Positions 11,858 to 35,989 of a DNA stretch of 64,000 bases are shown one piece after another (the stretch's first letter is position 1; every line of letters starts with the position of its first letter). The stretch is from an uncultured Methanosarcinales archaeon (lineage in GTDB: Archaea > Nanobdellota > Nanobdellia > Woesearchaeales > CAYSVS01). The notes under the pieces are model-generated. The model made no database searches and was not told where the DNA came from. It saw only the letters and a program-made list of their open reading frames with translations. The stretch is from contig CAZPRK010000001.1 of assembly GCA_964589485.1 (NCBI GenBank), forward strand, positions 48,369-112,368, written 5' to 3'. A program made the translations under genes and the position numbers.

Positions 11858-11967
11858 CCTTTATAACCTCTTTTATATGATATATTATATTTTAATAATT
11901 AATTTATATATAAACCTTGTGATTTAAAATATAATTATTTATATAGAAATTATTTATCCTTTATCGA

Positions 11968-19815: not shown

Positions 19816-21201
19816 TTAAACCCAATTATTTTTTAACCAATGAGAATATGATTGTTCTAATGCTATTTTTTCAAATAAATATGTATATTGAAAAGAATGA
19901 ACTTTATGTGTAAATGTTTCTGTAATTGAAGGAATAGGATTTTTAAATTGTTGATATACTGAAACTTGATCTATACCCATATAAGCTCTAAATGGAGAAT
20001 AATAATAAAATAAATCAGTAAAACTAGACATCCAAAATGCAAGTAAATCGTCATTAGTAAAAACTTCTTTGGCATCCATATCTACTGTTCCAATCTTAAA
20101 AGTGTCATCAGTATACATCCTTCCTTCATCTGAAAAATATAACCCACCATCAAAATTATAAACCATAACTGTCCTCCCGCCAGATGAAAAGTTAGTTAAA
20201 TCAACATATAAAGGATCTTTTTCTGCAATTAATTTACGTAATTTAATATGAGCACCACGTTCATTTACTTCAATCCCTTTAGCATTTAATTCAGAAATAT
20301 AATCCATTGCTTCTTTCCAAAATAAATTAAAATCATCTGCAGAATAAGATAAATTATCCCAAGTTGTTAATGCATCTCCTAAACTATTTAATGGTCTTAG
20401 GTGAATTGACTGTATACCCAATCTTACATATTCATCTATTATTTCTTTTGGATATTTTAAAGAATTTTTAGAAATTGTTGCCAATACTCCAACAAAAGGA
20501 TTAATTCCTCTTTTTTTTTGTTCTTCTTTCACCATTTCTATTTTTTGAATTACTTCATCATAACTTCCTTCTCCAGTTGCAGTTTTTCTATGGAAATTAT
20601 GAACTTCTTTAGGACCATCTAAAGATGTACAAATAGATACATCATTATCTAAAAAAAAATCTAATTTTTCTTTATCTAAAAGTCCTAGATTTGAAACAAT
20701 AGTAATAACCATATTTTTTTTAATGGTTTGATTTAATTTTCGTAAATGAGTAATTATTAATTTAACAGTATTCCAGGCAATTAAACATTCTCCCCCTTGA
20801 AACTCAATTGTTGGAGAATCATTACTATTTTCCATTATCCATTTAACTACTTTCATCGCTACATCTTCTTTCATTAAACTTCTTCCACGACTAACTCCAG
20901 CATGACAATATGTACATCTTTGATTACAAGTATCAGTTACATTAATAATATGTAAACTTGGTTTAAAAAATAAATTTTTATTCAAACTACGATAAGTATT
21001 AACTATATTTTTAGTATTATTTTCATCAATAATAATTCCGCTTTTAATTAGTTTAGTTTGTAAATCTAAATCATAAGAAAAAGTTTTTAATTTTCTCAAC
21101 TCTTCTTTATCTAAAATAGTCCAACCACCAAAATATCCATTTACTACAAATTTATCTTTACTTACTTCTTTTTGAGTGTAAGGTAAAATACGTTCATTCA
21201 T
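19816..21201 (-). CDS. Radical SAM enzyme (single CxxxCxxC, no obvious SPASM), anSME/AslB-like
   Basis: VTDTCNQRCTYCHAG; GGECL motif. Confidence 0.75.
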   Translation of the reverse strand: MNERILPYTQKEVSKDKFVVNGYFGGWTILDKEELRKLKTFSYDLDLQTKLIKSGIIIDENNTKNIVNTYRSLNKNLFFKPSLHIINVTDTCNQRCTYCHAGVSRGRSLMKEDVAMKVVKWIMENSNDSPTIEFQGGECLIAWNTVKLIITHLRKLNQTIKKNMVITIVSNLGLLDKEKLDFFLDNDVSICTSLDGPKEVHNFHRKTATGEGSYDEVIQKIEMVKEEQKKRGINPFVGVLATISKNSLKYPKEIIDEYVRLGIQSIHLRPLNSLGDALTTWDNLSYSADDFNLFWKEAMDYISELNAKGIEVNERGAHIKLRKLIAEKDPLYVDLTNFSSGGRTVMVYNFDGGLYFSDEGRMYTDDTFKIGTVDMDAKEVFTNDDLLAFWMSSFTDLFYYYSPFRAYMGIDQVSVYQQFKNPIPSITETFTHKVHSFQYTYLFEKIALEQSYSHWLKNNWV

Positions 21202-21400
21202 TTTCTCTCACCTTAGCCAAAACATAATTAGCAAATTCAAACGGTAAAATTGAATCATCTTTAAATTCTATAATAACAAAAGAATCTTCTTCAACTAAAC
21301 TTACTTCATATTCTTTTTTAAACTCAAGCATAGTTTCCAAAATATATTTTTTTGGATAAAATTCTAAAGAAAGTTTAATTTTGTGAGACATCTTTCTCAA
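21194..21400 (-). CDS. Small hypothetical protein, 68 aa
   Basis: ORF overlapping the start of the downstream radical SAM gene by 8 nt (translational-coupling arrangement). Confidence 0.3.
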   Translation of the reverse strand: MRKMSHKIKLSLEFYPKKYILETMLEFKKEYEVSLVEEDSFVIIEFKDDSILPFEFANYVLAKVRENE

Positions 21401-21758
21401 CTTCTTCTAATAATTTATTTATTTCTTGTTCTTCGGCATCTTCAACTAATTTTGGTGAAGCTGAAAATAAAGCTCTTTGTAAAACTGCATTTATTACATC
21501 TTTATTTTGTTCAAATTGATTAAAATAATTAGTTATTGAAATTAAGTCATTAAAAAATCGTTGAGCAGTTTGATCTAGATTTACGTCTTTTTTTGGTTTA
21601 ATTTTCACAATAACTTCATCATTTAAATTTCCATCTAATAAAACATAAAAATCATCCAAATAAACATAAGTAGTAGCATATATATTTTTCAAAGAATACA
21701 TTTTTGGATTTAATGTGATTATTAAAGCATTATTTTCAATTTTATAGTCTGTTGTCAT
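21375..21758 (-). CDS. Hypothetical protein, 127 aa
   Basis: ORF in operon position upstream of the 68-aa ORF and the radical SAM gene. Confidence 0.4.
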   Translation of the reverse strand: MTTDYKIENNALIITLNPKMYSLKNIYATTYVYLDDFYVLLDGNLNDEVIVKIKPKKDVNLDQTAQRFFNDLISITNYFNQFEQNKDVINAVLQRALFSASPKLVEDAEEQEINKLLEEVEKDVSQN

Positions 21759-21780: not shown

Positions 21781-22551
21781 TTATATATAGTTTTCGCTTT
21801 TCGAAACTATCTTTATATATTCTTTATTCTTATTAAGTAATTCATTAAGTAACTCATTCTTCATTAATTCATTTAATAATGATATATCTTTTTCAAGGCA
21901 CCCTTTAGTAACTCCATTTAAAGCTTCTTTTAATTCAACATTCCATTTAGAATTTACACAATTTCGTAATTCTTCAAAATTAATACTTTCTTTTTTAGAT
22001 AATAAAGAAATTTCTTGTGCAAATATAATATCCATATATCTTTGAGAATTTTCTACTAACTTAGATAAAACTGCAATTTTAGGATTTGTCCATATTAAAT
22101 TATTAAAATCCATAAAATTATCCAAAAATTCAATAGTTTTTTCTTTTGATTTTACATCTATAGGTCCAATTACCCTTTTCAAATTAAATATTTGGTGTTG
22201 ATTATCATTTTCACTAAACCTATGTGGAAAAAATGATAAAAAACTATCATTAGAATTAACTTTTTTTATTATATAATCTACATCTTTCAATGAAATAGTT
22301 GATTCAACTAAAATTAAAGGTTTATTTTCAAAATTAATAGAATTAATAATATCTAAAACTTGATTTGAAGTGTATACTGTAATAAAATAATAATCTGCAT
22401 TTATTTCAGAAACAGAATTAAAACAACTAATACCTTGTATAAATTTGTTTGAATCAATATCAACACCAATAACTTCAAAATTATCACAAGGTAACAAATC
22501 CTTTACTAAAGTATTTCCAATCTTACCCAATCCCACTACTGCAATTTTCAT
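21781..22551 (-). CDS. UDP-glucose/GDP-mannose dehydrogenase family protein, C-terminally truncated (no UDP-sugar-binding domain)
   Basis: MKIAVVGLGKIGN Rossmann motif; KLVENSQRYMDIIFAQEISLL matches the central domain; GCLEKD matches the catalytic GGxCxxKD; only 256 aa. Confidence 0.5.
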   Translation of the reverse strand: MKIAVVGLGKIGNTLVKDLLPCDNFEVIGVDIDSNKFIQGISCFNSVSEINADYYFITVYTSNQVLDIINSINFENKPLILVESTISLKDVDYIIKKVNSNDSFLSFFPHRFSENDNQHQIFNLKRVIGPIDVKSKEKTIEFLDNFMDFNNLIWTNPKIAVLSKLVENSQRYMDIIFAQEISLLSKKESINFEELRNCVNSKWNVELKEALNGVTKGCLEKDISLLNELMKNELLNELLNKNKEYIKIVSKSENYI

Positions 22552-23129
22552 TCTAATACTCTAAGAAAAGCTTGTAAATCTTTTCGGTTTCTCATTTCAT
22601 AAGGATCTTTAGCAAAAGAATATATTTGGTTTTTTAATTTATATTTTTTACATAACTTTAAATTTTGAATTATTCTTCCTATAAATTTAACTCTATTTCC
22701 TTTTAATATTTCATTAAAATTAAATCCAATAATTATATCTTTTTTCTTGGCTAAAACACTTAAAACTTGATTTAATCCACTTTCTCTATGATGTACAGAA
22801 TCACTTATTGGACTTAATTCTAAATCATAAACTAAATTGATCTTTTTTTCAAAAAAAGTCCTAGTAGGATTTTTTACAATAATAAAATCAGTTTTTTTCT
22901 TTGCTTTTACCATTTCTTCAATTTTATCTATTTGAATAGCTAATTTAACTTTTATTTTATCGGATTTAAAGTTTACAAAATCCTCTAAACTGTAACAAAA
23001 GTATATTTCATTATATCCTAACTGTAATGCTATTTCTATAAATTCATTTTCATTTCCTTTAGGAAACACAATATCTCCATTCATAATAGGTAGTAACAAG
23101 ATATTGAATTTAAAAGTATTTATTTTCAA
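22548..23129 (-). CDS. rnp3: RNase P protein component 3 (Rpp30/Rnp3)-like
   Basis: C-terminal region KKKDIIIGFNFNEIL...KKYKLKN...SFAKDPYEMRNRKDL parallels archaeal Rpp30 (ValgFsl...kkykv...SSA...d.R.prDL), as judged from memory. Confidence 0.5.
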   Translation of the reverse strand: MKINTFKFNILLLPIMNGDIVFPKGNENEFIEIALQLGYNEIYFCYSLEDFVNFKSDKIKVKLAIQIDKIEEMVKAKKKTDFIIVKNPTRTFFEKKINLVYDLELSPISDSVHHRESGLNQVLSVLAKKKDIIIGFNFNEILKGNRVKFIGRIIQNLKLCKKYKLKNQIYSFAKDPYEMRNRKDLQAFLRVLE

Positions 23130-23141
23130 TATAGAAATAAA

Positions 23142-24017
23142 TTAAACCAATTCATACAATTCGCAAGCCTTACAAATTTCTCCACGCGAAGGTTGATCGC
23201 ATTTCATACACAAGTTAGGTTCCTCAGAAGTTGCAAATTTTTTCTTTAATTTTGGTAAAATATTAATAAAATTATTAATAATATTTTCTTTAGTTCCTTT
23301 GTGATTGTTTTCATATTCATTTAATAAATCTCTTACTGTTGCACGATAACTTAATCCTGTATATTTACATTCAGTATATTTGATTTTAAATTTTTTTATC
23401 AAAGTATACACTAAAACTTCTTTTTCTCTCATAAAATATAAAGGTTTGACACGTTGTGTGAAAAAATGCCTATATTTTTTTAAGCCTGATTTTGGACCAA
23501 GTCTTGCCAATAATTCAACATTTCCTCTAAATAAATTTACTAAAACGCTTTGACATTCATCATCTAAATTATGCCCTGTAATTATTTTATCATACCCTTT
23601 TGAATGTTTATTTAACAAATATCTTCTAAATGTTCCACAAATATGACAAGGTTTAAATTTAGTTTTTTTAATCATTTTATCTAAAGGAGAACCAAATTCT
23701 TTTTCAAAAGCTACAATTTTTAATGGAATTTTATATTCATTACAAAATAATTTTAAATCTTTAAGTGTATGTTCTCTATAATATTTTATTCCTTCATCAA
23801 TAGCTAATGCTGTCACATTTCCAAAAAATTTATTGACTAAATATAAAACAGTTAAACTATCTTTCCCTCCAGAAACTGCAATCATAGTTTTATCTTTTTT
23901 TTCAATTAAGTCAAACTTTTTTATAGTGTTAAATACTTTTTTTTCAAAATATTTAACAAAATGTTCACTACAATATTTAGGATATATTGCTTTTTTTACA
24001 CACTTTGAACATTTCAT
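23142..24017 (-). CDS. ncsA: tRNA 2-thiolation PP-loop ATPase, NcsA/TtuA (Ncs6/Ctu1) family
   Basis: N-terminal CxxC zinc finger, SGGKDS PP-loop, internal CHICG and Cys for an Fe-S cluster, C-terminal CMKCDQ...CKAC zinc finger. Confidence 0.75.
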   Translation of the reverse strand: MKCSKCVKKAIYPKYCSEHFVKYFEKKVFNTIKKFDLIEKKDKTMIAVSGGKDSLTVLYLVNKFFGNVTALAIDEGIKYYREHTLKDLKLFCNEYKIPLKIVAFEKEFGSPLDKMIKKTKFKPCHICGTFRRYLLNKHSKGYDKIITGHNLDDECQSVLVNLFRGNVELLARLGPKSGLKKYRHFFTQRVKPLYFMREKEVLVYTLIKKFKIKYTECKYTGLSYRATVRDLLNEYENNHKGTKENIINNFINILPKLKKKFATSEEPNLCMKCDQPSRGEICKACELYELV

Positions 24018-24212
24018 TTATCCACCACTTACAACTGAAAGTAATTTAATTTCATCTTTATTATCTAACATTTCATCTTCTAAAATCAATTCATTATTTC
24101 TAATTGGTAAAACTTCTTCAGGATTAATCTTAATTTTTTCAAATAATCCTTTTAATTTTCCACTATAATTTATATTAATTGTTTTATTTTTATGTTCAAT
24201 ATATACTTTCAT
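24018..24212 (-). CDS. Small archaeal ubiquitin-like modifier / sulfur carrier (SAMP/TtuB, MoaD-ThiS fold) with C-terminal Gly-Gly
   Basis: 64 aa ending ...DEIKLLSVVSGG-stop; abuts the ncsA start with no gap. Confidence 0.65.
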   Translation of the reverse strand: MKVYIEHKNKTININYSGKLKGLFEKIKINPEEVLPIRNNELILEDEMLDNKDEIKLLSVVSGG

Positions 24213-25054
24213 TTTAATTCCTCAATCTTATTCTTAATTTCTTTATCAGATAATGCAATTAAAGGTCTTAATTCGATCAATTCATCACCTAATACTTTAA
24301 AGTTACTTACATTTTGTCCAAGGACTATAACTTTACTTAATTCCTTTATTTCATTTAATGAATTTATTTTAATTGATTTTAATTTATAATATTTATCAAG
24401 CCATGTTTCGCCTATTTCTTTTTTAGAAATAAGAATTACTTTACTTCCTCTTCTCATCATAAAAAAAGCTGCCAAATAATCTTGATCTTTTTCAATGTAA
24501 CAATATAAAATTTTACTACTACTTATAGGCATTCCTCCGATAGCTTTAATTTTTTTACAATAAATTAAACTAAATTTAGGATAAATTTCAACCCCGATTT
24601 CTTCTTGAAAATCTTTCAAAGAAACTTTTGCGGAAGTATTTTCTAAAACATATTCACCTATTTTTTTTTCTAATTCATTGGATTTAATTTTAAATTTTTT
24701 ATCTATTCGTTTTACACTTACTCTAAATGTAGTTTTATCACCAAAATCAATAACTTCAAGTACTTTTTTATTAATATCTTCTAAATTAGATTGGGTAATT
24801 AAAGCATGACTAAAACCAACTACACCAAAAACCTTACTTAAGTCATATTTTTCATCTGTATGAATAAAAATTCTTCCTCTTCTTTTAGATATTTTATCAT
24901 AACTTAAGTTATTTTCATTTAAATAAAGTTTAATATTATTTACCAATATCTGTTCAAAAGTACTTCTATTTCTACCTTTTAAAGCAATCTCCCCATATCT
25001 AATAATTATCATAATAAACACCAAAAAATCATAATCGTAATTTCTCCACAACAT
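24209..25054 (-). CDS. ThiI-like THUMP-domain protein with degenerate, truncated PP-loop domain
   Basis: N-terminal RYGEIALKGRNR (ThiI NFLD/THUMP signature). The PP-loop position reads YCYIEKDQDYLAAFFMMRRG where canonical ThiI has LLSGGIDSPVAA..MMKRG. Only 281 aa. Confidence 0.55.
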   Translation of the reverse strand: MLWRNYDYDFLVFIMIIIRYGEIALKGRNRSTFEQILVNNIKLYLNENNLSYDKISKRRGRIFIHTDEKYDLSKVFGVVGFSHALITQSNLEDINKKVLEVIDFGDKTTFRVSVKRIDKKFKIKSNELEKKIGEYVLENTSAKVSLKDFQEEIGVEIYPKFSLIYCKKIKAIGGMPISSSKILYCYIEKDQDYLAAFFMMRRGSKVILISKKEIGETWLDKYYKLKSIKINSLNEIKELSKVIVLGQNVSNFKVLGDELIELRPLIALSDKEIKNKIEELK

Positions 25055-26129
25055 ACTTTACTTTTGAAATAACATAATCTAACTCTTTTTTAGTATTATA
25101 TTTACTTAAACTAAACCTTATACTACTCAATGCTTCTTTTCTAGACTTACCTATTGCTGTTAAAACTTTACTTGGTTCAATTTTTTTACTTGTACATGCA
25201 CTACCAGAACTAACTGCAATACCAAAATGATCTAAATGCATTAACAAACTTTCTGCTTCACACCCAATAAATGAAATATTAATATTATTATATAACCTAT
25301 CCAAAGGACCATTTAATTTAGTGTTTGGTATTTTTAATAATTCATTTAATAAATACTTATTTAGCTTTAAAATTTGATCTTTTTGTTGATCCAACGTAAC
25401 AGCAAGAGAAAACCCAAAAATCCCTTGAACATTTTCAGTTCCTGGACGTAACCCTTGCTCTTGATCACCTCCTGACATTAAAGGTTTAAGTTTTATTCCA
25501 TTTCGAATATATAATCCTGCAACACCTTTAGGACCATGAATTTTATGACTTGAAAAACTCAATAAATCAATATTATTTTTATTTACATTAATATCTAATT
25601 TACAAAAACTTTGAACTGCATCTACATGAAATAAAATTTTATTTTCATGACAAATTTTTCCAATTTTTTCAATATCTTGTATAGTCCCTATTTCATTATT
25701 TGCATGAATAATTGAAATTAAAGAAGTATTTTTATCTATTAATTCAAGTAGATGTTTAATATCAACATATCCTTCCTTATCTACTTTAACATATTTTATT
25801 TTTTTTCCAGAATTAATACATGAATTTAAAATAGAAGGATGTTCAATACGAGTTGTAATTATATTTTCTCCATCACTTCCAAAAATAGCTAGGTTATTTG
25901 ACTCTGTGCCAGAGGAAGTAAATATAATTTCTTTACTTTGAGCATTAATTTTTTTTGCAATTATTTCTCTAGATTGTTCTAAAACTTTTCTTGCATCTAG
26001 TCCAAAACTATGTATACTTGAAGCATTACCATATAATTGAAAAGAATTTAATTTTTTTTGTACACTTTTATCAATTTGCGTAGTAGCTGCATTATCTAAA
26101 TATATTTTCATTCGAAACACACCTTGCAA
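25029..26129 (-). CDS. iscS: Cysteine desulfurase (IscS/NifS, class V aminotransferase)
   Basis: SFSSHKIHGPKGVAGLYIR PLP-lysine motif; SSGSACTS active-site Cys loop. Confidence 0.85.
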   Translation of the reverse strand: MQGVFRMKIYLDNAATTQIDKSVQKKLNSFQLYGNASSIHSFGLDARKVLEQSREIIAKKINAQSKEIIFTSSGTESNNLAIFGSDGENIITTRIEHPSILNSCINSGKKIKYVKVDKEGYVDIKHLLELIDKNTSLISIIHANNEIGTIQDIEKIGKICHENKILFHVDAVQSFCKLDINVNKNNIDLLSFSSHKIHGPKGVAGLYIRNGIKLKPLMSGGDQEQGLRPGTENVQGIFGFSLAVTLDQQKDQILKLNKYLLNELLKIPNTKLNGPLDRLYNNINISFIGCEAESLLMHLDHFGIAVSSGSACTSKKIEPSKVLTAIGKSRKEALSSIRFSLSKYNTKKELDYVISKVKYVVEKLRL

Positions 26130-26464
26130 TCATCTTTAATTTCCTCAACTTTTTGATGATAACAACATATTTTTCTTTCAGATTTTATATAATCACATAC
26201 TTGTTGAATTTCTTTCATTATTGAAGAATTTTCTTTAACAATTCGTTTAGCTGCATCTTCAATTTTAGATTTAACATCACTATCTAAAACTATAGCATTT
26301 GCACGTTTTGCTTTTACATATTGATTTACTGCAGCTCTTGAAATTCCTAATTTTTCAGCAATTTTAACTTGACTTAAACCTAAATCTAACATTTTCTTAC
26401 TTAATTCTGATCTAACTGCAGGTAAAATATACCAAACTTCAATTTCTTGTGGCATTAATGTCAT
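26108..26464 (-). CDS. HTH DNA-binding protein with C-terminal Cys cluster (probable regulator of the sulfur-relay operon)
   Basis: MLDLGLSQVKIAEKLGISRAAVNQYV helix-turn-helix; C-terminal CDY..CCYH..CKVC. Confidence 0.5.
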   Translation of the reverse strand: MTLMPQEIEVWYILPAVRSELSKKMLDLGLSQVKIAEKLGISRAAVNQYVKAKRANAIVLDSDVKSKIEDAAKRIVKENSSIMKEIQQVCDYIKSERKICCYHQKVEEIKDDCKVCFE

Positions 26465-26547
26465 TTTAAATATATATTTTGCAGAGTTATTTAAATATTA
26501 TGGGATATATCACAAAATTTAAATAAAAAACAATTTAAATATATTAT

Positions 26548-27396
26548 ATGGTTTTAGAATCATTAACTAATCCTTTTAAGGTAAAGGAAAAACCTTGGCA
26601 TTTATTCTATTATGGTTTTATAATTAGCACAATTGCATTATTTTTTTCAGTATGGATTTTCGAAAAAGAAGCTAGTTTAATCATGGTTTTTTTAACAGTT
26701 TTTGCATGTATTCCTTTTGTAATTAAAGTAATCAAAAACGAAGAAATAAAAACAATTACTATTGAAAAGGAAAGTACTATATTGAAAGAACATTGTAAGG
26801 CATTAATTGGACTCACTATTTTATTTTTAGGAATAACAATTTCATTTTCAATTTGGTATACTCTTTTACCTAAAGAAATGGTAAATAATATTTTTGCAGT
26901 TCAAATTGAAACAATAGCTAGTATAAATTCTAATTTATCCGGAAATTTTTTTAGTAATTCTAGTTTCGGAATAATTTTTATGAATAATATCAAAGTTTTA
27001 AGTTTTTGTATATTATTTTCATTTCTCTATGGAGCAGGTGCAATTTTTATTTTAACTTGGAATGCTTCTGTTATCGGTACAGCTATTGGAAGTTTTGCAA
27101 GGGATTTATTAGTAAACACTTCTACATCATTAGGATTTAATTCTATTGCGAATTATTTCAGTGCCCTTTCGTTAGGTTTATTAAGATATTTATTACATGG
27201 AATTCCAGAAATTTTTGCTTATTTCGTAGGTGGGCTCGCAGGTGGAATAATATCATATGCAATTATTAATCATAATTTTCAAACAAAAAAATTCGAAAAA
27301 GTATTATTAGATTCATCGGAATTAATAATAGCTTCAATACTATTATTAGTTTTTGCAGGATTAGTTGAAGTTTATATTACACCCGCTTTATTCTAA
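26548..27396 (+). CDS. Polytopic membrane protein, SpoIIM/DUF95-like
   Basis: Multiple TM segments; family assignment from general resemblance only. Confidence 0.4.
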   Translation: MVLESLTNPFKVKEKPWHLFYYGFIISTIALFFSVWIFEKEASLIMVFLTVFACIPFVIKVIKNEEIKTITIEKESTILKEHCKALIGLTILFLGITISFSIWYTLLPKEMVNNIFAVQIETIASINSNLSGNFFSNSSFGIIFMNNIKVLSFCILFSFLYGAGAIFILTWNASVIGTAIGSFARDLLVNTSTSLGFNSIANYFSALSLGLLRYLLHGIPEIFAYFVGGLAGGIISYAIINHNFQTKKFEKVLLDSSELIIASILLLVFAGLVEVYITPALF

Positions 27397-27981
27397 AATT
27401 TTTATTTTACCTGGAGATATTTCGAAAATTTCTCCATTTTCTAATAATTTATTTATTAATTTTTCTTCAATTCCTTGAGAAATAAGTTCTTCAATTTTTG
27501 CCCCATCACCAGAATCTTTTTCTTTTATTATTTTAATTACATCGTCGTAATTATTTACAACAACTACATCTTCCACTATTACTTCTTCATGTATTTTTTC
27601 ATAATCTAATTTACTTAATTCTTTTTGTCTTACTTTTAACCACTCAGAATTAATTTTTTTAATTATTTCTATAGCAAAATATTTTTCTTGTTCAAATTCT
27701 CTTGGTCTTCCTATAACTTGTACAATATCCCCTACTTCAAACTCAGAGAAATTTATTACTACATCGAAACTTCTAGTTGCAATAGAAGCACTTCCATCAT
27801 CAATAACTAAATTATCTTCATTTTTAGTTACAATTGTTCCCATAACATTAGCTCTTGAAATTTTTACATTATTATCTGTTAAAATATAATTCGGTTCCCA
27901 CCCTTCTTGTTTAATATACTTACCCAAATTTAAATCTTTAATACTAACTTTTATTGCAACTTGCCTTTTTTTATCTTCCAT
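27388..27981 (-). CDS. RPA32-like OB-fold protein with C-terminal winged-helix-like tail
   Basis: OB-fold-like core (ANVMGTIV...DDGSASIA...VGDIVQVIGRP); immediately downstream of mcm with a 2-nt gap. Confidence 0.45.
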   Translation of the reverse strand: MEDKKRQVAIKVSIKDLNLGKYIKQEGWEPNYILTDNNVKISRANVMGTIVTKNEDNLVIDDGSASIATRSFDVVINFSEFEVGDIVQVIGRPREFEQEKYFAIEIIKKINSEWLKVRQKELSKLDYEKIHEEVIVEDVVVVNNYDDVIKIIKEKDSGDGAKIEELISQGIEEKLINKLLENGEIFEISPGKIKILE

Positions 27982-27983
27982 AA

Positions 27984-30900
27984 TTATAACCTCTGTATTA
28001 AACCTCTTCTTGGTTCAAAAATATCACCACCTCTTTTTAGCTTGTCTACAATTTCTTCTACTTCATTTTCATTTAATCCCTTTTCTTTTGCAGAATTAAC
28101 AATTTCTTCAAGCGGAATAGCTTTTCCATATTGATTTTCTAATTCATTAAGAATTTCTTTTATAATTGAAATTTTATTTCTTGCACTAGATGTAATCCCT
28201 GAAGTAATTCTATCAATATCTATTTTACCAGTATCTGGATCTAATCCAACTTCAGTTAAACAAAAATTCAATAAATCAATTGATTTTTTTGTATCTTCTT
28301 TTAAAACTTCATCGCCTAACCTTAATTTACAAGCAGCTTCAGCCAACCTTATAATTGCTTCAAGCTGTCTTGTTGTAATAGGAACAGCTTTAACTCCTGC
28401 TTCTTCTGAAGAAGAACTATTTCTCATTTGAACATAATATTTTTGAATATCTTCAATTGCTTCATCGGATAATGTAGGAGAAACAAATCTTCTAGCATAT
28501 GCTATATATTTTCTTAATATATCAGTACTTATTTCTGTTTCATCAACATCTGGCGTTTTATGTGATTCTAAAATAAAAGAAGCCATTTTTGCATCTTTTT
28601 TTTCATCTGGAAGATCTTTAATTGGAAATATTAAATCAAATCTTGAAATTAAAGCAGGAGGTAAATTAATTTGTTTTCCTATTATGTCATAAGGGTCAAA
28701 CCTTCCAAATTTCGGATTAGCTGCAGCTAATACTGTTGTTTCACATCTTAATGTTGCTTGTATATTTGCTTTAGAAATTGTAATAGTTTGTCCTTCAAGT
28801 GCTTCATGCATTGCACTTCTATCTTCAGGTGACATTTTATCTAATTCATCTATACATACTAATCCTTTATTAGCTAAAACTAAAGCTCCTGCTTCCAAAC
28901 TCCATCCTCCCAAAAATTCATCCTTAACTACAGCTGCAGTTAATCCTGCACCTGATGCACCCTTTCCACTAACAAATCTTGCTTTAGTTGATATTTTTGA
29001 AGCTCGTTTAAGTAACTGAGAATTGTGTACAACAACTCCATTTGCAATATAATTATGGGTTGATTCTATTTCTAAGTCATAAACAAAATCATCACATAAT
29101 TCTTCTTTAATACTTAAAATTTCATCCCAAAAAACATCAGCATGGGATATTTGATTTAATTTTTTAACATCATTTAAATCTATATTTGATAAATATTGAG
29201 ATATTTTTTTTGTAATACTTACACTAGGTAATCTATTATTTTGTTCATAATGAGCATATGAACTTCTTATAATACCCATTTCCGATTGTTTAAGCTTTAA
29301 ATCAATTCTTATTTTTTTTAATAAATCATTTATATTAGGTATCAAATCTATATTAGTATTATATAATTTTGTATTTTGTATTAATAAATTAATTTCATTT
29401 TTTTTCCTTTTAGACAAAAACCCAATTTTATTGATAAAAGGTTTAACAAATTCTCCACCAATAATAATTTCATAACTTTTTACTTTTCTTTTATTAACTG
29501 TATTTGTAGCAAATTTAATTTTTTCTTTAAATAAACTTATTACACCAAACCTAAGTAAACATAACTGGATATTTTCTGCTAAATTTTTACTAATAGATGA
29601 AAATTCAATTTGTCTCTTTTTTACATTAATATTAGCATCACACTCAAACAAAGCAGAAATAAAATTACTTAATATTTCATCAGAAGATTTCAAGATTAAA
29701 TTAGGTATACTTTTATTTAAAGATCCTTCCATAAGTTCTTTAAAATTTAAATTTAAATAATCTACTAAATTTTTAGATAAAGTATAAATTTCTTTAGTTT
29801 TATTTAATCCATCTCTTTCAGTAACGTTTACATCAAATAAAGATTTTATTAACTTTGAAAAATCATTTAAAACGCAATTATCTTCATTAGTTAAACTAAC
29901 CCATGCGCTAGTTTTTGAATATGCAACATATCCATCTCCACATAAATAGCCTAATAATCTAGATAAATCCAATGATACAAATTCAGGATATTTTAATTTC
30001 TTAGAATTTTTTGCATATTTTGGAATAAAATTACTAATAGTTTGAATTTCATTTTTAATTTTTACACTTCTAGGTGCAGCTATCCGTTCTCCAACCTTAA
30101 AACTTTGAGCATCCTTTGCAATAATTAAACCATTATGTACTTGAAATAAAGGATGGTTTTTAGTGAGTTTTAAAGTTACACCTCTTCTTGTTTTTATCAC
30201 TAATAGTTTTTCATTAATTTTTCTCTTCCAAACTCTAACTCCTTTTCCATTTTTAATTTTACCATCAAAAAATAAACTAGGAAGAGTTAAACTTTCTATT
30301 TCAACATTATCATTAATAATATTATATTCATCAACTAAATCTTTTATTCTTTTTATTTCTCCATTTGATAATAGAATTTTTGTATCTCCATGTAAACATT
30401 TTCCCGCACCAGGGTCCCCTATTAATAATATATGTATATCTCCTCTTGTTGAAGCTCCATCGGTTCTAATTTTTTTTACTCCCCCAATTAAAGAATATAA
30501 TATAGCTTCTTTTATTTTATCATATCCATAAATACTAGGTGCACAAGCTTCAACCATTTTTAAATATATTTTAGGATCTTTCGCCAAAGTTTTTATTGCA
30601 TCAATATCTTCTTTACTAATTTGTATCTCACTATAATCTTCTTCCACAGGATCTATATGATTTGCTTCAATAATTAAATCAAATCTTGTACTTTGTCCAC
30701 CAGATCTCATTATAATTGGAACTTCTTTCACAAACCCAGTAACTTTAATTTTAGTTCCAGGGTTAGTTCTTTTATCAGAAATTGGACTTACTAAATCTTC
30801 TTTAAGTAAAAGATTCATTCTTTTAGGTTGTTCTCCTCCTTCTAAATCATCTGTATTTTCTTCTAAAACAATTCCTTGCGCATCAATTAATTCTTTATTT

Positions 30901-31382
30901 AGTAATCTAAATTTCCCTTTCCTACCACATCCACATTTACTTGGTTCCTTAAATTTTTGATCTAATTGTAAAACATTCAATACATTACCACAAACAGGAC
31001 ATTCAAACTTAGCAGAAGTAACTTGTGGACGTACATCTGATTTTTGCCTAACTACTCCATCAAGAGAAATAAACTTACCAATATGAGCGCTCCTTATTTC
31101 TCTAATTAAAATATCTTGACTATCTGGTAAATTCTTAAAACGAATTCTAAAATTAACAGTTTCTTGAGGTGTATCAAACTGTTCAACTGCTATTTCAGCA
31201 GCTTTAATAGACTCTTCTGGAGTTTCAAGTAACTCGTTAGCTATTTCTATATCAAATTTAGATAAATCTAAAAAATCAATTACAAAGTAATTATTTCCCT
31301 TTCTAATTGATTCCATTAAATCAGTATTACAATTAGTTTCCAAATACTCTTGAAACTTCTTAATCTGCTCTGCAGCGTCCAT
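27984..31382 (-). CDS. mcm: MCM replicative helicase containing a 459-aa intein
   Basis: N-terminal zinc finger CPVCG..CGCG; Walker A GDPGAGK|...|SQLLK split by the intein; Walker B and arginine finger region (DELDKM, SRFDLIF); extein about 673 aa. Confidence 0.95.
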   Translation of the reverse strand: MDAAEQIKKFQEYLETNCNTDLMESIRKGNNYFVIDFLDLSKFDIEIANELLETPEESIKAAEIAVEQFDTPQETVNFRIRFKNLPDSQDILIREIRSAHIGKFISLDGVVRQKSDVRPQVTSAKFECPVCGNVLNVLQLDQKFKEPSKCGCGRKGKFRLLNKELIDAQGIVLEENTDDLEGGEQPKRMNLLLKEDLVSPISDKRTNPGTKIKVTGFVKEVPIIMRSGGQSTRFDLIIEANHIDPVEEDYSEIQISKEDIDAIKTLAKDPKIYLKMVEACAPSIYGYDKIKEAILYSLIGGVKKIRTDGASTRGDIHILLIGDPGAGKCLHGDTKILLSNGEIKRIKDLVDEYNIINDNVEIESLTLPSLFFDGKIKNGKGVRVWKRKINEKLLVIKTRRGVTLKLTKNHPLFQVHNGLIIAKDAQSFKVGERIAAPRSVKIKNEIQTISNFIPKYAKNSKKLKYPEFVSLDLSRLLGYLCGDGYVAYSKTSAWVSLTNEDNCVLNDFSKLIKSLFDVNVTERDGLNKTKEIYTLSKNLVDYLNLNFKELMEGSLNKSIPNLILKSSDEILSNFISALFECDANINVKKRQIEFSSISKNLAENIQLCLLRFGVISLFKEKIKFATNTVNKRKVKSYEIIIGGEFVKPFINKIGFLSKRKKNEINLLIQNTKLYNTNIDLIPNINDLLKKIRIDLKLKQSEMGIIRSSYAHYEQNNRLPSVSITKKISQYLSNIDLNDVKKLNQISHADVFWDEILSIKEELCDDFVYDLEIESTHNYIANGVVVHNSQLLKRASKISTKARFVSGKGASGAGLTAAVVKDEFLGGWSLEAGALVLANKGLVCIDELDKMSPEDRSAMHEALEGQTITISKANIQATLRCETTVLAAANPKFGRFDPYDIIGKQINLPPALISRFDLIFPIKDLPDEKKDAKMASFILESHKTPDVDETEISTDILRKYIAYARRFVSPTLSDEAIEDIQKYYVQMRNSSSSEEAGVKAVPITTRQLEAIIRLAEAACKLRLGDEVLKEDTKKSIDLLNFCLTEVGLDPDTGKIDIDRITSGITSSARNKISIIKEILNELENQYGKAIPLEEIVNSAKEKGLNENEVEEIVDKLKRGGDIFEPRRGLIQRL
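29022..30398 (-). mobile_element. Intein with LAGLIDADG homing endonuclease, inserted in the MCM P-loop between Lys and Ser
   Basis: Starts CLHGDTKILL just after GDPGAGK; ends VVHN followed by +1 Ser (SQLLK); LAGLIDADG-like blocks LLGYLCGDGYV and FISALFECDANI. Confidence 0.85.
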
Positions 31383-31989: not shown

Positions 31990-32000
31990 ATTTATAAAAG
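31968..32000 (-). promoter_or_regulatory. Candidate TATA/BRE promoter for the tbp-mcm operon
   Basis: Minus strand reads CTTTTATAAATGTGTTTATAAAGCTTATAAAGG, 20-50 nt upstream of ATG 31947, followed by a GGGGG SD-like motif. Confidence 0.4.
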
Positions 32001-32067
32001 ACAGTTAGTATTTAAATACTTTCATTTTTAAATGGTTTTTTCAGATAATATATATTCTTGTTCCTAT

Positions 32068-32089
32068 AACCCCTTTGTTTCTTATGGAG
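32068..32089 (-). promoter_or_regulatory. ORB-like (origin recognition box) candidate
   Basis: Plus strand AACCCCTTTGTTTCTTATGGAG resembles the reverse complement of ORB cores (ACCCCTTTCGTTTCCACTGGAG). Confidence 0.3.
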
Positions 32090-32189
32090 AAAAGAAGAAA
32101 TATGGCTTAATTTACTAAATTAAGCCCAAATTAAGTTCCATTTCATTATAAAGTTTAAAATAAGATTTGTTTTCAATATAGAAATTAAA

Positions 32190-33116
32190 TTAAAGAAAGT
32201 AAATTAAATTACTTATTTTTTTAATTTCATTTAAACCAATATTTTTTTTAAATTCAATTTCTCCATATTTATGCACTATTATTTCAGAATTATTATAATT
32301 TATAATTAAAACAATATTAGCATCTAATTTTATTTTAAATTTTTTCCTTAATTCTTTAAAATTTAAACTAGTTTTCTTTAATGGTTTTGTTTTATATGTA
32401 TTTTTAGATAAGCATTTTTCAATTTTATAATTTTCATCACTTATAATTTCACTATGATTACATTTTTTTTCTTTTTTAACCTTAATTTCCGTTATCCCAT
32501 TATTCCATATATTAATGTGAATTAAATTTTGAGAATATTCTTTATTATTCAAAAATTTTAATGCTTGGGTTATTTGAACAGAAGAAACTATTGCTATTAA
32601 AGAGTTTAAAACACCTTCATTGTCACAATTTTTATTTATATTACTTTTATATACACAATCAAAACAAATATTCGAATCAACAAAAAGAACATTTCCAATA
32701 ACCCCTGTTGCAGCTGCATGAATCCAAGAAATATTAGTTTTTTTTGAATATCTATTTATTACTCTTCTAGTTTCGAAATTATCAGTACAATCTAAAATTA
32801 AATCTGACTTAAGTATTTTTGAATTATTATCATCTAAATGTGTTGCATGTGATTTAATAGTTATATTAGAATTTATTTTTTTTAACTTTTTAATAGCCAC
32901 TTTAGCCTTTAATTCATTAATATCTTTTTCATCATAAAGAATTTGTCTTTGTAAATTATCTAACTGTACTATATCTTGATCAATTAATATTAAATTTACA
33001 CCAGCTCTTGCAAGTAAACTAGAAGCAAAAGTCCCTAATGCTCCAACTCCAACAATTGTAACTGTTTTTTTTTGTGAAGTTTTACCTAATATTGATTCTT
33101 GTCTTACATATCTCAT
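32190..33116 (-). CDS. ubaA: E1-like ubiquitin-activating enzyme homolog (UbaA/ThiF/MoeB family) with about 100-aa C-terminal extension
   Basis: IVGVGALGTFASSLLARAGV Rossmann motif, NLQRQ, CFDC CxxC. Confidence 0.75.
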   Translation of the reverse strand: MRYVRQESILGKTSQKKTVTIVGVGALGTFASSLLARAGVNLILIDQDIVQLDNLQRQILYDEKDINELKAKVAIKKLKKINSNITIKSHATHLDDNNSKILKSDLILDCTDNFETRRVINRYSKKTNISWIHAAATGVIGNVLFVDSNICFDCVYKSNINKNCDNEGVLNSLIAIVSSVQITQALKFLNNKEYSQNLIHINIWNNGITEIKVKKEKKCNHSEIISDENYKIEKCLSKNTYKTKPLKKTSLNFKELRKKFKIKLDANIVLIINYNNSEIIVHKYGEIEFKKNIGLNEIKKISNLIYFL

Positions 33117-33210
33117 TTAAATGCCTAATTGATAAGTATTTTTAAAAGTAACCATTCCAAATCAACATAATTGAATAGATAAATTTGTATTTAGAAAACT
33201 ATTTAAACCT

Positions 33211-33240
33211 CCGCTTCTGATGGAAATTCTCGTAGGGGGT
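33211..33240 (+). promoter_or_regulatory. ORB-like element abutting the cdc6 start (also carries the GGGGG SD)
   Basis: CCGCTTCTGATGGAAATTCTCGTAGGGGGT resembles the euryarchaeal ORB pattern (TTCCAGTGGAAAT...GGGGG) recalled from memory. It lies 4 nt upstream of the cdc6 ATG. Confidence 0.35.
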
Positions 33241-33244
33241 AAAG

Positions 33245-34453
33245 ATGAGCAAAGAATTAAATAATTTTTTTGAAAAATTTCTAACAAGGCAACCATTGTT
33301 CTTAAATAAAACAGTAATACAATCAAATTATTCACCAGAAAAAATTGAACATAGAGATGATCAAATCCAAAAAATTGCAGATATTCTTGCTCCTTCGCTT
33401 AGACTTGAAAAACCTAGTAATTTATTCATTTATGGTAAAACTGGTACAGGAAAAACTCTTAGTGTAAAATATACAACTGATAAAATTTTAGAAGTTGCAG
33501 AAAAAAAAGGAACTCCAATTAAAATTTTTTATTTAAATTGTAAATTAAAAAAAGTAGCTGATACTGAATATAGATTAATTGCACAATTAGCAAGAGAATT
33601 AGGTAAAACTATCCCTGCTACAGGTTTACCAACAGATGAAGTTTATAAAATTTTTTTTGAAGCTTTAGATAAAGATAAAAAATTATTTTTAGTTATTTTA
33701 GATGAAATAGATCAATTAATTAAAAAAGCAGGAGACGAAATATTATATAATTTAACTAGAATTAATACTGAATTAAAAAATTCACAAATTGCTATAATTG
33801 GTATTTCAAACGATTTAGTATTTGCAGATTCGTTAGATCCTAGAGTTAAAAGTTCACTTTCAGAAGAAGAAATTGTTTTTCCTCCATATAATGCAATTCA
33901 AATCCAAGATATCTTAAAACAAAGAGCAAAAATAGGATTTAAAGATGGTGTTATAGAACCAGGTGTAATTGAAAAATGTGCAGCTTATGCGGCAAGGGAA
34001 CATGGAGATGCTAGAAGAGCAATTGAATTATTGAGAGTTTCTGGAGAAATAGCAGAAAGATCAGGTAAAACAATTTTAGAAATAAAAGATTTAGATGAGG
34101 CTGAAGATAAAATTGAAAGGGATAGAATTTTAGATGTAATTATTACTCAACCTAAACAACATCAAGCTACATTATATTCAATATTAGCTGTTAAAGATAA
34201 TAAAAAAAGCACAATATTTACTGGTGAAGTATATGAAGTATACAAAGAAATTTGTCAAAAAGTTAATTTACAATTTCTAACTCAAAGAAGAATATCAGAT
34301 GTTCTTGCAGAATTAGATATGTTGGGCATAATTAACGCTAAAGTTATTTCTAAAGGTCGATATGGTAGAACTAGAGAAATTTCATTATCCCTTCCTGAAG
34401 CATCAGTAAATAAAATTAAAAATTTACTTGAGGAAGGTTTAGACTTATGTTAG
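33245..34453 (+). CDS. cdc6: Cdc6/Orc1 replication initiator
   Basis: Walker A IYGKTGTGKT, AAA+ core, C-terminal winged helix; about 400 aa. Confidence 0.95.
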   Translation: MSKELNNFFEKFLTRQPLFLNKTVIQSNYSPEKIEHRDDQIQKIADILAPSLRLEKPSNLFIYGKTGTGKTLSVKYTTDKILEVAEKKGTPIKIFYLNCKLKKVADTEYRLIAQLARELGKTIPATGLPTDEVYKIFFEALDKDKKLFLVILDEIDQLIKKAGDEILYNLTRINTELKNSQIAIIGISNDLVFADSLDPRVKSSLSEEEIVFPPYNAIQIQDILKQRAKIGFKDGVIEPGVIEKCAAYAAREHGDARRAIELLRVSGEIAERSGKTILEIKDLDEAEDKIERDRILDVIITQPKQHQATLYSILAVKDNKKSTIFTGEVYEVYKEICQKVNLQFLTQRRISDVLAELDMLGIINAKVISKGRYGRTREISLSLPEASVNKIKNLLEEGLDLC

Positions 34454-35988: not shown

Positions 35989-35989
35989 A

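Follow-up and report, generated by a model that had tools for sequence, protein, structure and literature searches.

A predicted ThiI pseudoenzyme in a recurrent gene cluster of DPANN archaea with a probable role in sulfur mobilisation and tRNA thiolation

Between positions 22548 and 26464 of a 64-kb stretch of archaeal DNA (contig CAZPRK010000001.1; 'the window' below always means this whole stretch of 64,000 nucleotides), the minus strand carries six open reading frames (ORFs), all confirmed present, for a helix-turn-helix protein with a C-terminal cysteine motif (HTH/Cys), the cysteine desulfurase IscS, a ThiI-like THUMP protein, a small ubiquitin-fold sulfur carrier, a TtuA/NcsA-family thiolase and the RNase P subunit Rpp30. 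We consider it probable, though well short of certain, that this locus is the local form of a sulfur-mobilisation and tRNA-thiolation cluster belonging to a clade of DPANN archaea, and that its ThiI-like member, for which we use the name ThiIs (given here to the family of short, dead ThiI proteins), serves in it as a non-catalytic tRNA-binding partner. The six family assignments, which an earlier reading of the letters (the original prediction) had proposed, were borne out by profile, PDB and structure searches (Table 1), Rpp30 as a divergent but credible member of its family. The desulfurase, the THUMP protein, the Gly-Gly carrier and the TtuA/NcsA thiolase are encoded side by side, and judging from the sequence their genes are very probably co-transcribed. 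The synteny comparison with related archaea that had been suggested at the same time was carried out, and it showed the arrangement to be conserved in a DPANN clade rather than unique to the genome of the window.

The window has a G+C content of ~25% and is archaeal by its TATA-binding protein (TBP), its intein-containing MCM, its Cdc6 and its PolD small subunit. In the literature searched on the orphan protein PH1313 of Pyrococcus horikoshii, on DPANN archaea with ThiI/IscS and on a link between NcsA and RNase P, no account of the cluster or of a function for proteins of the PH1313 type was found.

Table 1. Features of the locus and its surroundings (positions in the window)
Feature	Length (amino acids)	Position	Strand	Basis
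HTH/Cys protein	118	26108..26464	-	HTH_3 27.2 bits (gathering score 23)
IscS/NifS-type (class I) cysteine desulfurase	360	25029..26111	-	Aminotran_5 3.8e-80, motifs
ThiIs, short PP-loop-less ThiI paralogue	267	24209..25012	-	ThiI_fer + THUMP, motif loss
Ubiquitin-fold sulfur carrier (TtuB/SAMP2/Urm1-like)	64	24018..24212	-	ThiS match, …SVVSGG end
TtuA/NcsA-family [4Fe-4S]-type PP-loop tRNA 2-thiouridine synthetase (thiolase)	291	23142..24017	-	Profiles, motifs
RNase P subunit Rpp30 (component 3)	178	22548..23084	-	NF046111, PDB, homologue alignment
ThiF/MoeB/UbaA-type E1, no rhodanese domain	308	32190..33116	-	ThiF PF00899 6.9e-51
TATA box TTTAAATA (putative promoter)		26488..26495	-	23 nt upstream of the HTH/Cys start codon
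TATA-like octamer TTTAAATT (putative internal promoter)		23107..23114	-	Within the 57-nt spacer, 22 nt ahead of the Rpp30 ATG

ThiIs and its recurring neighbourhood

ThiIs consists of a ferredoxin-like domain at the N-terminus (NFLD), a THUMP domain and a vestigial Rossmann-like domain. The first two are matched by ThiI_fer (PF22025, 1.9e-18) and THUMP (PF02926, 7.6e-11), the match to TIGR00342 is confined to profile positions 1-206 of 373, the Pfam search found no match to PF02568 in the protein, and in the homologue search relatives of 243-292 amino acids (aa) lacking PF02568 ranked ahead of the ordinary ThiI of ~390 aa. When the sequence was checked against the residue roles described for ThiI (PMC4041423, PMC9825150), the PP-loop SGGxDS was found replaced by IEKDQ-D, the segment bearing Arg264/Met267 was deleted, the DI-loop QVASQT (pattern GxNxxQxxxQ) was lost, the corresponding stretch reading GQNVSNFKVLG, and the region for Cys344, the archaeal CXXC+C [4Fe-4S] motif or a rhodanese domain was absent, the protein ending ~110 residues past the linker; neither of its two cysteines is conserved. 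None of the 26 clade-I ThiIs (the clade is defined below) retains the catalytic motifs, and in 23 of them the PP-loop Asp is deleted. The NFLD loop, RYGEIALKGRNR in the window protein, is intact and conserved in 26/26, and its pattern RYGE(I/L)ALKG(K/R)NR is as invariant in ThiIs as in 40 active enzymes.

Because the PP-loop, the ATP contacts and the catalytic-cysteine region are gone, ThiIs would be able neither to adenylate nor to thiolate, and by its sequence it is a pseudoenzyme, not a thiouridine synthetase, that keeps the tRNA-binding half. The ThiI-like THUMP protein of the original prediction stands as to family and tRNA-binding half, with the correction that synthetase activity is predicted to be lost. 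Could it still make 4-thiouridine at position 8 (s4U8) by way of an unconventional nucleotide-binding site? The retained ThiI domain order and the Rossmann-like remnant, with its conserved 'MMKRG' and 'RPL' motifs, might be read in this sense, but the replacement of SGGxDS by acidic or variable residues, with the Arg264/Met267 segment deleted in 26/26, together with the loss of the DI-loop, of any conserved Cys and of the Cys344/CXXC+C region, makes such an activity highly improbable.

The AlphaFold2 model of ThiIs (pLDDT, the predicted score of the local distance difference test, 95.5) found its best Foldseek match in PH1313 (PDB 1VBK; template modelling score, TM, 0.87; E=3.8e-25), followed by the ThiI structures 2C5S and 4KR7 (TM 0.78-0.79), and phmmer ranked the structures in the same way (125 bits for 1VBK vs 76 for 2C5S and 71 for 4KR6). 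The activity of PH1313 was never confirmed (PMC9957541), and all ThiI/TtuI proteins have been described with a PP-loop catalytic domain (PMC9825150). Searched among 1.84 billion representatives with a profile, the ThiIs family comprises at least 150 clusters at 50% identity (E <=3e-69), the matches listed being nearly all 245-310 aa long, full-length and all stand-alone; by these sequences, the family is large, stable and under selection rather than a decaying gene.

How widely is the neighbourhood of ThiIs shared? Homologue look-ups and a GTDB genome scan (queried with a 5-sequence alignment) yielded 88 loci, annotated with phmmer, in which the dead ThiI proteins form three groups, namely DPANN clade I (25 distinct loci beside the window, or 26 if one duplicate is counted), DPANN clade II and a Thermoplasmata clade. 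Within 3.5 kb of ThiIs, IscS is found in 17 of the 25 clade-I loci, the thiolase in 15 (one more contig, the sixteenth, breaks off at the carrier) and Rpp30 in 16, and the consensus order is [HTH]-IscS-IscU-ThiIs-[DUF218]-[carrier-thiolase]-Rpp30. In L007 it reads IscS, IscU, ThiIs, carrier, thiolase, Rpp30, and in L009 a divergent E1 is followed by HTH, IscS, IscU, ThiIs, carrier, thiolase, one further gene and Rpp30. The closest relative of the window, L001, comes from a marine metagenome and has a ThiIs that is 60% identical. Four loci (L027, L028, L053 and L088) have no adjacent carrier; there ThiIs abuts the thiolase directly or at 14 nucleotides (nt), and the thiolase is TtuA-like at three of the signature positions discussed below. 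In clade II (L004, L011, L017, L019, L024 and L026; dead ThiI of 243-261 aa), five of the six loci place the dead ThiI directly upstream of a MiaB/MtaB-type methylthiotransferase (UPF0004+Radical_SAM), another Fe-S, sulfur-inserting tRNA enzyme. For the Thermoplasmata proteins (303-311 aa) no sulfur-related neighbours were found, the adjacent genes being ApbA-like and 2-hydroxyacid-dehydrogenase-like by sequence reading.

Some further observations concern the loci themselves. A DUF218 gene (~162 aa) stands directly after ThiIs in one subclade (L006, L008, L013-L015, L018, L021 and L025), inserted between ThiIs and the carrier/thiolase or Rpp30. Proteins of 367 aa from Methanofastidiosa, considered as dead ThiI, were rejected, as they carry SSGIDS and CxxC and represent a real TtuI beside a SepCysS-like gene. 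In L075 (4908-6930) a ThiI derivative is likewise paired with sulfur-carrier machinery: the gene for a ThiF-type E1 of 360 aa is followed, after a 1-nt gap, by that for a ThiI-like protein of 312 aa, whose PP-loop, SGKRDV, is half degenerate.

The pairing of iscS with an active thiI is common in bacteria, as in the nifZ-thiI adjacency of Bacillus subtilis (PMC5372739), and in Methanococcus maripaludis TtuI is MMP1354 and NcsA MMP1356. The sulfur-gene neighbourhood is for these reasons probably old, its DPANN version being one in which thiI has lost catalysis. It is on the same grounds conceivable, although rather unlikely in our judgement, that ThiIs has no connection to the thiolase at all, that it is a general tRNA-binding protein or chaperone, or a dead subunit heterodimerising with a canonical ThiI, and that its position is simply inherited from the old iscS-thiI and thiI-ncsA order. 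Six clade-I loci (L012, L013, L015, L016, L018 and L021) do keep ThiIs beside IscS-IscU and/or Rpp30 without a thiolase within 3.5 kb, the Thermoplasmata clade fits such an account as well, and some Woesearchaeota encode a full-length ThiI (P0021). What speaks against mere inheritance is that in relatives ThiIs heads a unit with a promoter-like box that includes carrier and thiolase (see below), that it lies against the thiolase, or no more than 14 nt from it, where the carrier is missing, and that the sister clade has moved beside another sulfur-inserting tRNA enzyme, as one would expect of a link in function rather than in history. The lack of a second thiI within 64 kb is weak evidence in the same direction; the tblastn search of the 64-kb window that covered it likewise found no iscU, mtaB or DUF218 gene.

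Sulfur source, carrier and thiolase

IscS matches Aminotran_5 (PF00266) over residues 9-353 and the NifS/IscS models of NCBIfam with E-values from 1e-102 to 5e-124 (IscS itself 4e-106), its scores lying under the equivalog cut-offs for TIGR03402 (NifS; 5e-124, 414 bits vs 531) and under the cut-off for NF010611 (355 bits vs 548). Both active-site elements, the pyridoxal-phosphate lysine motif SSHK and the cysteine loop SSGSACTS, are present in the translation. The C-terminus sets the window protein apart from its IscU-linked relatives. A tail of the form (I/V/L)SPL… is found in 13/13 IscU-linked IscS homologues, and it is missing in the window and in L001 (359 aa), whose proteins end at …KLR(L/F), the window reading …EKLRL. 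In Escherichia coli IscS, deletion of residues 376-404 abolishes IscU binding, the segment being part of the IscS-IscU interface (PMC2854127). In both the window and L001 there is no iscU between IscS and ThiIs; absence of the tail coincides exactly with absence of iscU. The lineage of the window thus appears to have lost iscU together with the IscU-docking tail of IscS, and the desulfurase, released from IscU, appears to have been kept beside the thiolation genes as a dedicated donor. If so, this co-loss would be a natural example of a desulfurase turning dedicated to one acceptor route. As an observation apart, the IscU gene of L010 (4490-6004) contains an intein and encodes 504 aa instead of ~125 aa.

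The carrier, which belongs to the small beta-grasp (ThiS/MoaD) class with a Gly-Gly end, passes the ThiS threshold (PF02597, 24.0 bits vs gathering score 22.5) and stays under that of the SAMP2 model (21.8 vs 27). Among PDB entries it comes closest to Thermus TtuB (5ZTB_E, E=2e-5), with SAMP2 next. Orthologues ending in SV(V/I)SGG precede the thiolase in eight related loci, and one more lies at the cut end of L001. An E1 that would activate such a carrier is encoded ~6 kb upstream of the interval, on the far side of MCM and TBP. Among PDB entries E. coli ThiF matches it best (95 bits), and a homologue adjoins the cluster, or lies not far from it, in L001, L009 and L022. Because the E1 predicted to adenylate the carrier lies outside, the predicted relay is complete in the neighbourhood but not within 22548-26464. 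Of the complete relay in one operon that had been claimed, the sulfur source, the carrier and the thiolase are thus in place, and the completeness is not, with the E1 at 33116-32190.

The thiolase possesses SGGKDS, three [4Fe-4S] cysteines (CxxC + C) that align to PhTtuA Cys128, Cys131 and Cys220, and both the N- and the C-terminal zinc finger, and by these active-site motifs it should be catalytically intact. Which uridine would it modify? Over its whole length it matches the NCBIfam models NF049949 (TtuA, Pyrococcus; 9e-55, 186 bits, cut-off 450) and NF047749 (NcsA; 5.7e-48, 164 bits, cut-off 500), and among PDB entries PhTtuA (168.6 bits), MmNcsA (154) and TthTtuA (126), so that pairwise and NCBIfam scores slightly favour TtuA (169 vs 154; 186 vs 164 bits) but are too close to decide. 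Four second-sphere residues distinguish the two enzymes, namely Glu88, Arg94, Arg241 and Glu267 in MmNcsA vs Leu81, Ser87, Thr228 and Leu254 in PhTtuA, and are according to the authors only 'potentially involved' in specificity (PMC10067955, Bimai et al.). The window enzyme has E, R, R and I at these positions. Because three of the four are NcsA-like, it leans towards NcsA, and 2-thiouridine at position 34 (s2U34) is its most likely predicted product, s2U54 being possible. Among related loci, GG-ended carriers occur only beside thiolases with this E-R-R signature.

An alternative, to which we give distinctly less than even weight, is that the thiolase is a TtuA making s2U54 or its ribothymidine counterpart s2T54 in the T-loop, for which ThiIs would act as a ruler from the acceptor end to the tRNA elbow, like the THUMP domain of Pus10. 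The best PDB (PhTtuA) and NCBIfam (Pyrococcus TtuA) matches are both TtuA, the best match of the carrier is TtuB, and six cluster-linked thiolases of relatives are TtuA-like at three of the four signature positions; moreover, THUMP enzymes take the CCA end as the point from which they measure, and positions 54/55 are within reach of Pus10 (PMC9957541, PMC4041423). Nevertheless, of the four positions said to separate NcsA from TtuA (PMC10067955), three are occupied in the window enzyme by Glu, Arg and Arg, and both NCBIfam scores are far under their cut-offs. Furthermore, s2U34 is a near-universal need, and a single such gene was seen in the window. The modification s2T54 is known mainly from thermophiles, whereas the closest relative of the window comes from a marine metagenome.

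Predicted transcription units and other features of the window

From HTH/Cys to the thiolase the genes are tightly joined: a 4-nt ATGA overlap places the IscS ATG over the HTH/Cys stop codon (a sequence reading), a 16-nt spacer with GGTG inside separates IscS from ThiIs, another 4-nt ATGA overlap links ThiIs to the carrier, and the carrier abuts the thiolase ATG at 0 nt. The spacer before Rpp30 is 57 nt if the start of the latter is taken as ATG 23084, and not TTG 23129, as indicated by alignment with 14 homologues beginning M..DIVFP. In the window's 28 remaining same-strand pairs of genes, the gap has a median of 0.5 nt and measures <=20 nt in 19/28. Tight packing is therefore the norm across the window and by itself no evidence for a special arrangement; the overlapping and abutting genes emphasised in the original prediction are real up to the thiolase but for the 16-nt spacer after IscS, and what they lose, given the 57-nt spacer before Rpp30 and the habit of the whole window, is their distinction. 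The arrangement is lifted above chance not by packing but, as far as sequence comparison can tell, by its recurrence in 25 independent related loci (28-60% protein identity).

Might genome compaction nonetheless suffice, with six unrelated housekeeping genes packed on one strand? Overlapping or abutting genes are the rule here, and the same-strand string runs six genes beyond Rpp30, to 17618, into unrelated genes (nucleotide-sugar dehydrogenase-like, HxsD/HxsB, DegT), but the neighbours recur in the 25 loci at 28-60% ThiIs identity and through several rearrangements, five of the six gene products fall within a single biochemical pathway, and IscS, carrier, thiolase and Rpp30 are conserved as neighbours whereas the downstream genes are not. 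Compaction as the sole explanation is for these reasons improbable.

To locate promoters, TATA spacing was analysed, with a TATA-like octamer defined as TTTAWATW or WTTAWATA at 19-23 nt before a start codon; it replaced a sigma-70 scan that gave 78 promoter-like sites vs ~62 in shuffles and is uninformative for an archaeon, as is the intrinsic-terminator scan, which found no terminator-like sites. Octamers at this spacing precede 10 of 47 window genes vs ~0.3-0.7 expected, a geometry that is a signature of promoters for leaderless mRNAs. The box before HTH/Cys is the only strict TTTAWATA on the minus strand from 27500 to 11914 and a putative promoter of a leaderless HTH/Cys-to-thiolase transcript, and the octamer before Rpp30 is a putative internal promoter; no TATA-like box at promoter spacing was found before IscS, ThiIs, carrier or thiolase, nor before the six genes past Rpp30. 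From the octamer 22 nt before Rpp30, and from the lack of any inside, it follows that the unit of the window likely comprises the five genes from HTH/Cys to the thiolase, and that Rpp30 would head the next one. The continuation of the unit into Rpp30, as originally proposed, is thus doubtful.

In relatives, a TATA-like box stands at exactly 22 nt before ThiIs in 8/22 loci, compared with 0/15 before IscS, 0/15 before IscU, 0/9 before the carrier, 0/7 before DUF218, 1/15 before the thiolase and 3/16 before Rpp30 (L009, L010 and L012). The usual layout there would accordingly be [HTH-IscS-IscU] / [ThiIs-carrier-thiolase] / [Rpp30…] as units. Since the HTH-IscS unit seems to have been joined to the ThiIs-carrier-thiolase unit because iscU was lost, the single five-gene unit is best read as a derived fusion of the ISC unit with the thiolation unit. 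A single unit, of five genes and not of the six of the original prediction, may exist in the window, the two parts being usually separate elsewhere.

What might regulate such a unit? The HTH/Cys protein has a nearly invariant C-terminal motif, C…(L/I)CxxH…CxxC, with C100, C113 and C116 nearly invariant and His103 the majority residue. Its family is small (27 matches, the few named ones from Nanoarchaeota and Woesearchaeota), and its gene always has IscS as the next one downstream, as seen in 12 related loci. A search of the PDB with its AlphaFold2 model (pLDDT 88) gave nothing better than E=0.26, so that no named regulator family is assignable. A role analogous to that of IscR is plausible for HTH/Cys, which may sense metal or Fe-S and regulate the isc unit.

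Rpp30 is divergent but credible by its sequence. It scores under the thresholds of both NCBIfam (NF046111, 5.4e-14, 52 bits vs cut-off 200) and Pfam (RNase_P_p30, 26.8 bits vs gathering score 35), has PDB matches in 6K0A_C (E=4.5e-6) and PH1877 (1.8e-5), and its syntenic orthologue in L007 carries a recorded PF01876 match. Rfam and tRNA scans of the 64-kb window returned nothing, and thus neither an RNase P RNA nor a tRNA gene beside the cluster. The Rpp30 stop codon overlaps the ATG of the following gene (21781-22551, minus strand; ATGA-coupled), a truncated UDP-glucose/GDP-mannose-dehydrogenase-like gene whose 256-aa product keeps the NAD-binding start and the central domain alone; neither this gene nor the other downstream genes of the string (HxsD/HxsB, DegT) are conserved neighbours in relatives. 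The same string encodes an HxsD-like protein (TIGR03976, 2.8e-8) and an HxsB-like radical S-adenosylmethionine maturase (TIGR03978, 2.8e-98; its 330 bits narrowly miss the cut-off of 370) at 19816-21758 (minus strand), and the 68-aa ORF between them shows no HxS-repeat precursor. The His-Xaa-Ser system is known from bacteria and unexpected in an archaeon.

Elsewhere in the window, a single ORF that continues past the left edge (1-11860, minus strand) codes for at least 3953 aa; its product is rich in D/N/S/T, has a hydrophobic N-terminal segment and looks like one of the giant surface proteins often met in DPANN genomes. The MCM helicase (27984-31382, minus strand, 1132 aa) bears an intein-like insert right after Walker A (GDPGAGKC/LHGDT … VVVHN/S), and its L001 homologue is 673 aa long and has no insert. 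Directly after MCM lies a gene for a 197-aa protein with no Pfam match (27388-27981, minus strand); L001 has a 199-aa protein in the same position, and the two, likened by size and position, may represent a conserved MCM-associated gene. The region from ~32000 to 36000 looks like a replication-origin neighbourhood, with Cdc6 (33245-34453, plus strand) and the PolD small subunit (34447-35988, plus strand) divergent from E1, TBP and MCM, a sign change of the GC skew at ~34 kb and the minimum of the cumulative skew there.

Proposed partnership of ThiIs and comparison with known systems

By analogy with UbaA-SAMP2-NcsA of Haloferax and TtuA-D of Thermus, IscS would draw sulfur from cysteine, the E1 would adenylate the C-terminal Gly of the carrier, which would then be converted to a thiocarboxylate, and the thiolase would adenylate the target uridine and pass the sulfur via its Fe-S cluster to yield 2-thiouridine. 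What place is left for a dead ThiI in such a route? Perhaps the answer lies in the structure of Thermotoga maritima ThiI with RNA, in which the NFLD and THUMP domains of one protomer grip the acceptor stem and CCA end, and U8 is shown in trans to the PP-loop domain of the other protomer, whose active site is entered by the NFLD Lys loop (PMC4041423). Because the NFLD loop and THUMP domain are kept as strictly as in active ThiI while catalysis is gone, ThiIs is proposed as a tRNA-binding partner. It would bind the acceptor/CCA end and present the tRNA to the neighbouring thiolase, or scaffold that enzyme and possibly IscS, following the logic of in-trans presentation in the ThiI dimer; in clade II the partner would be MtaB. 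Non-catalytic partners of this kind have precedents in Ctu2 with Ctu1 (PMC10067955) and in Tan1/THUMPD1 with Kre33/NAT10 (PMC9957541).

A bolder version of this proposal, which we put forward only tentatively, holds that the ThiIs family is an obligate non-catalytic THUMP subunit docking on IscS and on [4Fe-4S] tRNA sulfur enzymes, be they NcsA/TtuA-type or MtaB-type, and delivering tRNA to them in trans. Were it true, ThiIs would be an archaeal, independently evolved counterpart of Ctu2/Tan1 that could retarget or gate thiolation, and the 20-year-old orphan structure PH1313 would gain a function.

Besides the six loci that keep ThiIs without a nearby thiolase, several points count against the picture drawn here. 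The proposed contact of ThiIs with the thiolase or with IscS is suggested by gene order, and no ThiIs-thiolase fusion was found among the best 150 of 6742 profile matches. In pairwise and NCBIfam comparisons the thiolase comes closest to TtuA of Pyrococcus and not to NcsA; the transcript structure is a prediction from sequence motifs; and the putative regulatory role of HTH/Cys has been drawn from its HTH match and motif and from gene position. To our knowledge, TtuA has been characterised without any ThiIs-like partner. NcsA of M. maripaludis was reported to be active alone (PMC10067955), and the THUMP enzymes listed in PMC9957541 and PMC9825150 act at positions 6-12 or 54/55, not at 34, which is awkward in combination with an NcsA-like signature.

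The significance of the cluster would be that ThiI-derived pseudoenzymes with only the tRNA-binding half recur at the head of a carrier-thiolase unit, beside IscS-IscU. This provides a testable hypothesis for orphan proteins of the PH1313 type and a hint at how sulfur may flow to tRNA in archaea with reduced genomes. Known chemistry is not overturned; what is gained is a component and an architecture that are new to a known pathway.

How does the locus compare with systems already described? With UbaA-SAMP2-NcsA of Haloferax volcanii and NcsA of M. maripaludis, which represent the archaeal s2U34 pathway, it shares the thiolase architecture (the SGGKDS motif, three cysteines for the [4Fe-4S] cluster and a pair of zinc fingers), three of the four NcsA-type second-sphere residues, a Gly-Gly ubiquitin-fold carrier and, in the window, a ThiF-type E1. 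It differs in that the fourth signature residue is Ile, not Glu, that the genes are clustered, with IscS among them, and that a dead ThiI paralogue is interposed; in Haloferax, the genes for UbaA, SAMP2 and NcsA are dispersed. Methanococcales are without a cysteine desulfurase (PMC10067955). TtuA-TtuB-TtuC-TtuD of Thermus thermophilus and PhTtuA of P. horikoshii, from the s2T54 pathway, provide the best pairwise matches of both thiolase and carrier and the same chemistry, and the sulfur route there runs from IscS or SufS to a thiocarboxylated carrier (PMC10067955). Unlike these systems, the window shows no rhodanese TtuD, its second sphere is mostly NcsA-like and its closest relative stems from a marine metagenome, not from a thermophilic source.

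For ThiIs itself, PH1313 is the closest protein in both sequence and fold, with an NFLD, a THUMP and a small C-terminal domain and a degenerate PP-loop of its own, LHDELS, but the window protein is 40 aa shorter, has a further reduced C-terminal domain and is only 31% identical. Canonical ThiI/TtuI (NifZ-ThiI of B. subtilis, T. maritima ThiI) shares the iscS-thiI adjacency, NFLD and THUMP, and the Lys-rich NFLD loop (PMC5372739); by contrast, ThiIs is without the catalytic half and should make no s4U8 by the known mechanism. Archaeal NcsA has been described as a single-protein thiolase as opposed to the eukaryotic Ctu1/Ctu2 pair, whose member Ctu2/Ncs2 is a diverged PP-loop-family paralogue that has no cluster cysteines and is needed beside the catalytic subunit Ctu1/Ncs6, probably for orienting the tRNA (PMC10067955). 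ThiIs, whose partnership is suggested by gene order, would differ from Ctu2 in having no sequence relationship to it, being derived from ThiI and not from NcsA, and would resemble it in being a non-catalytic companion. A similar likeness is offered by Tan1/THUMPD1, a THUMP-only protein that is needed by Kre33/NAT10, probably for orientation of the tRNA (PMC9957541).

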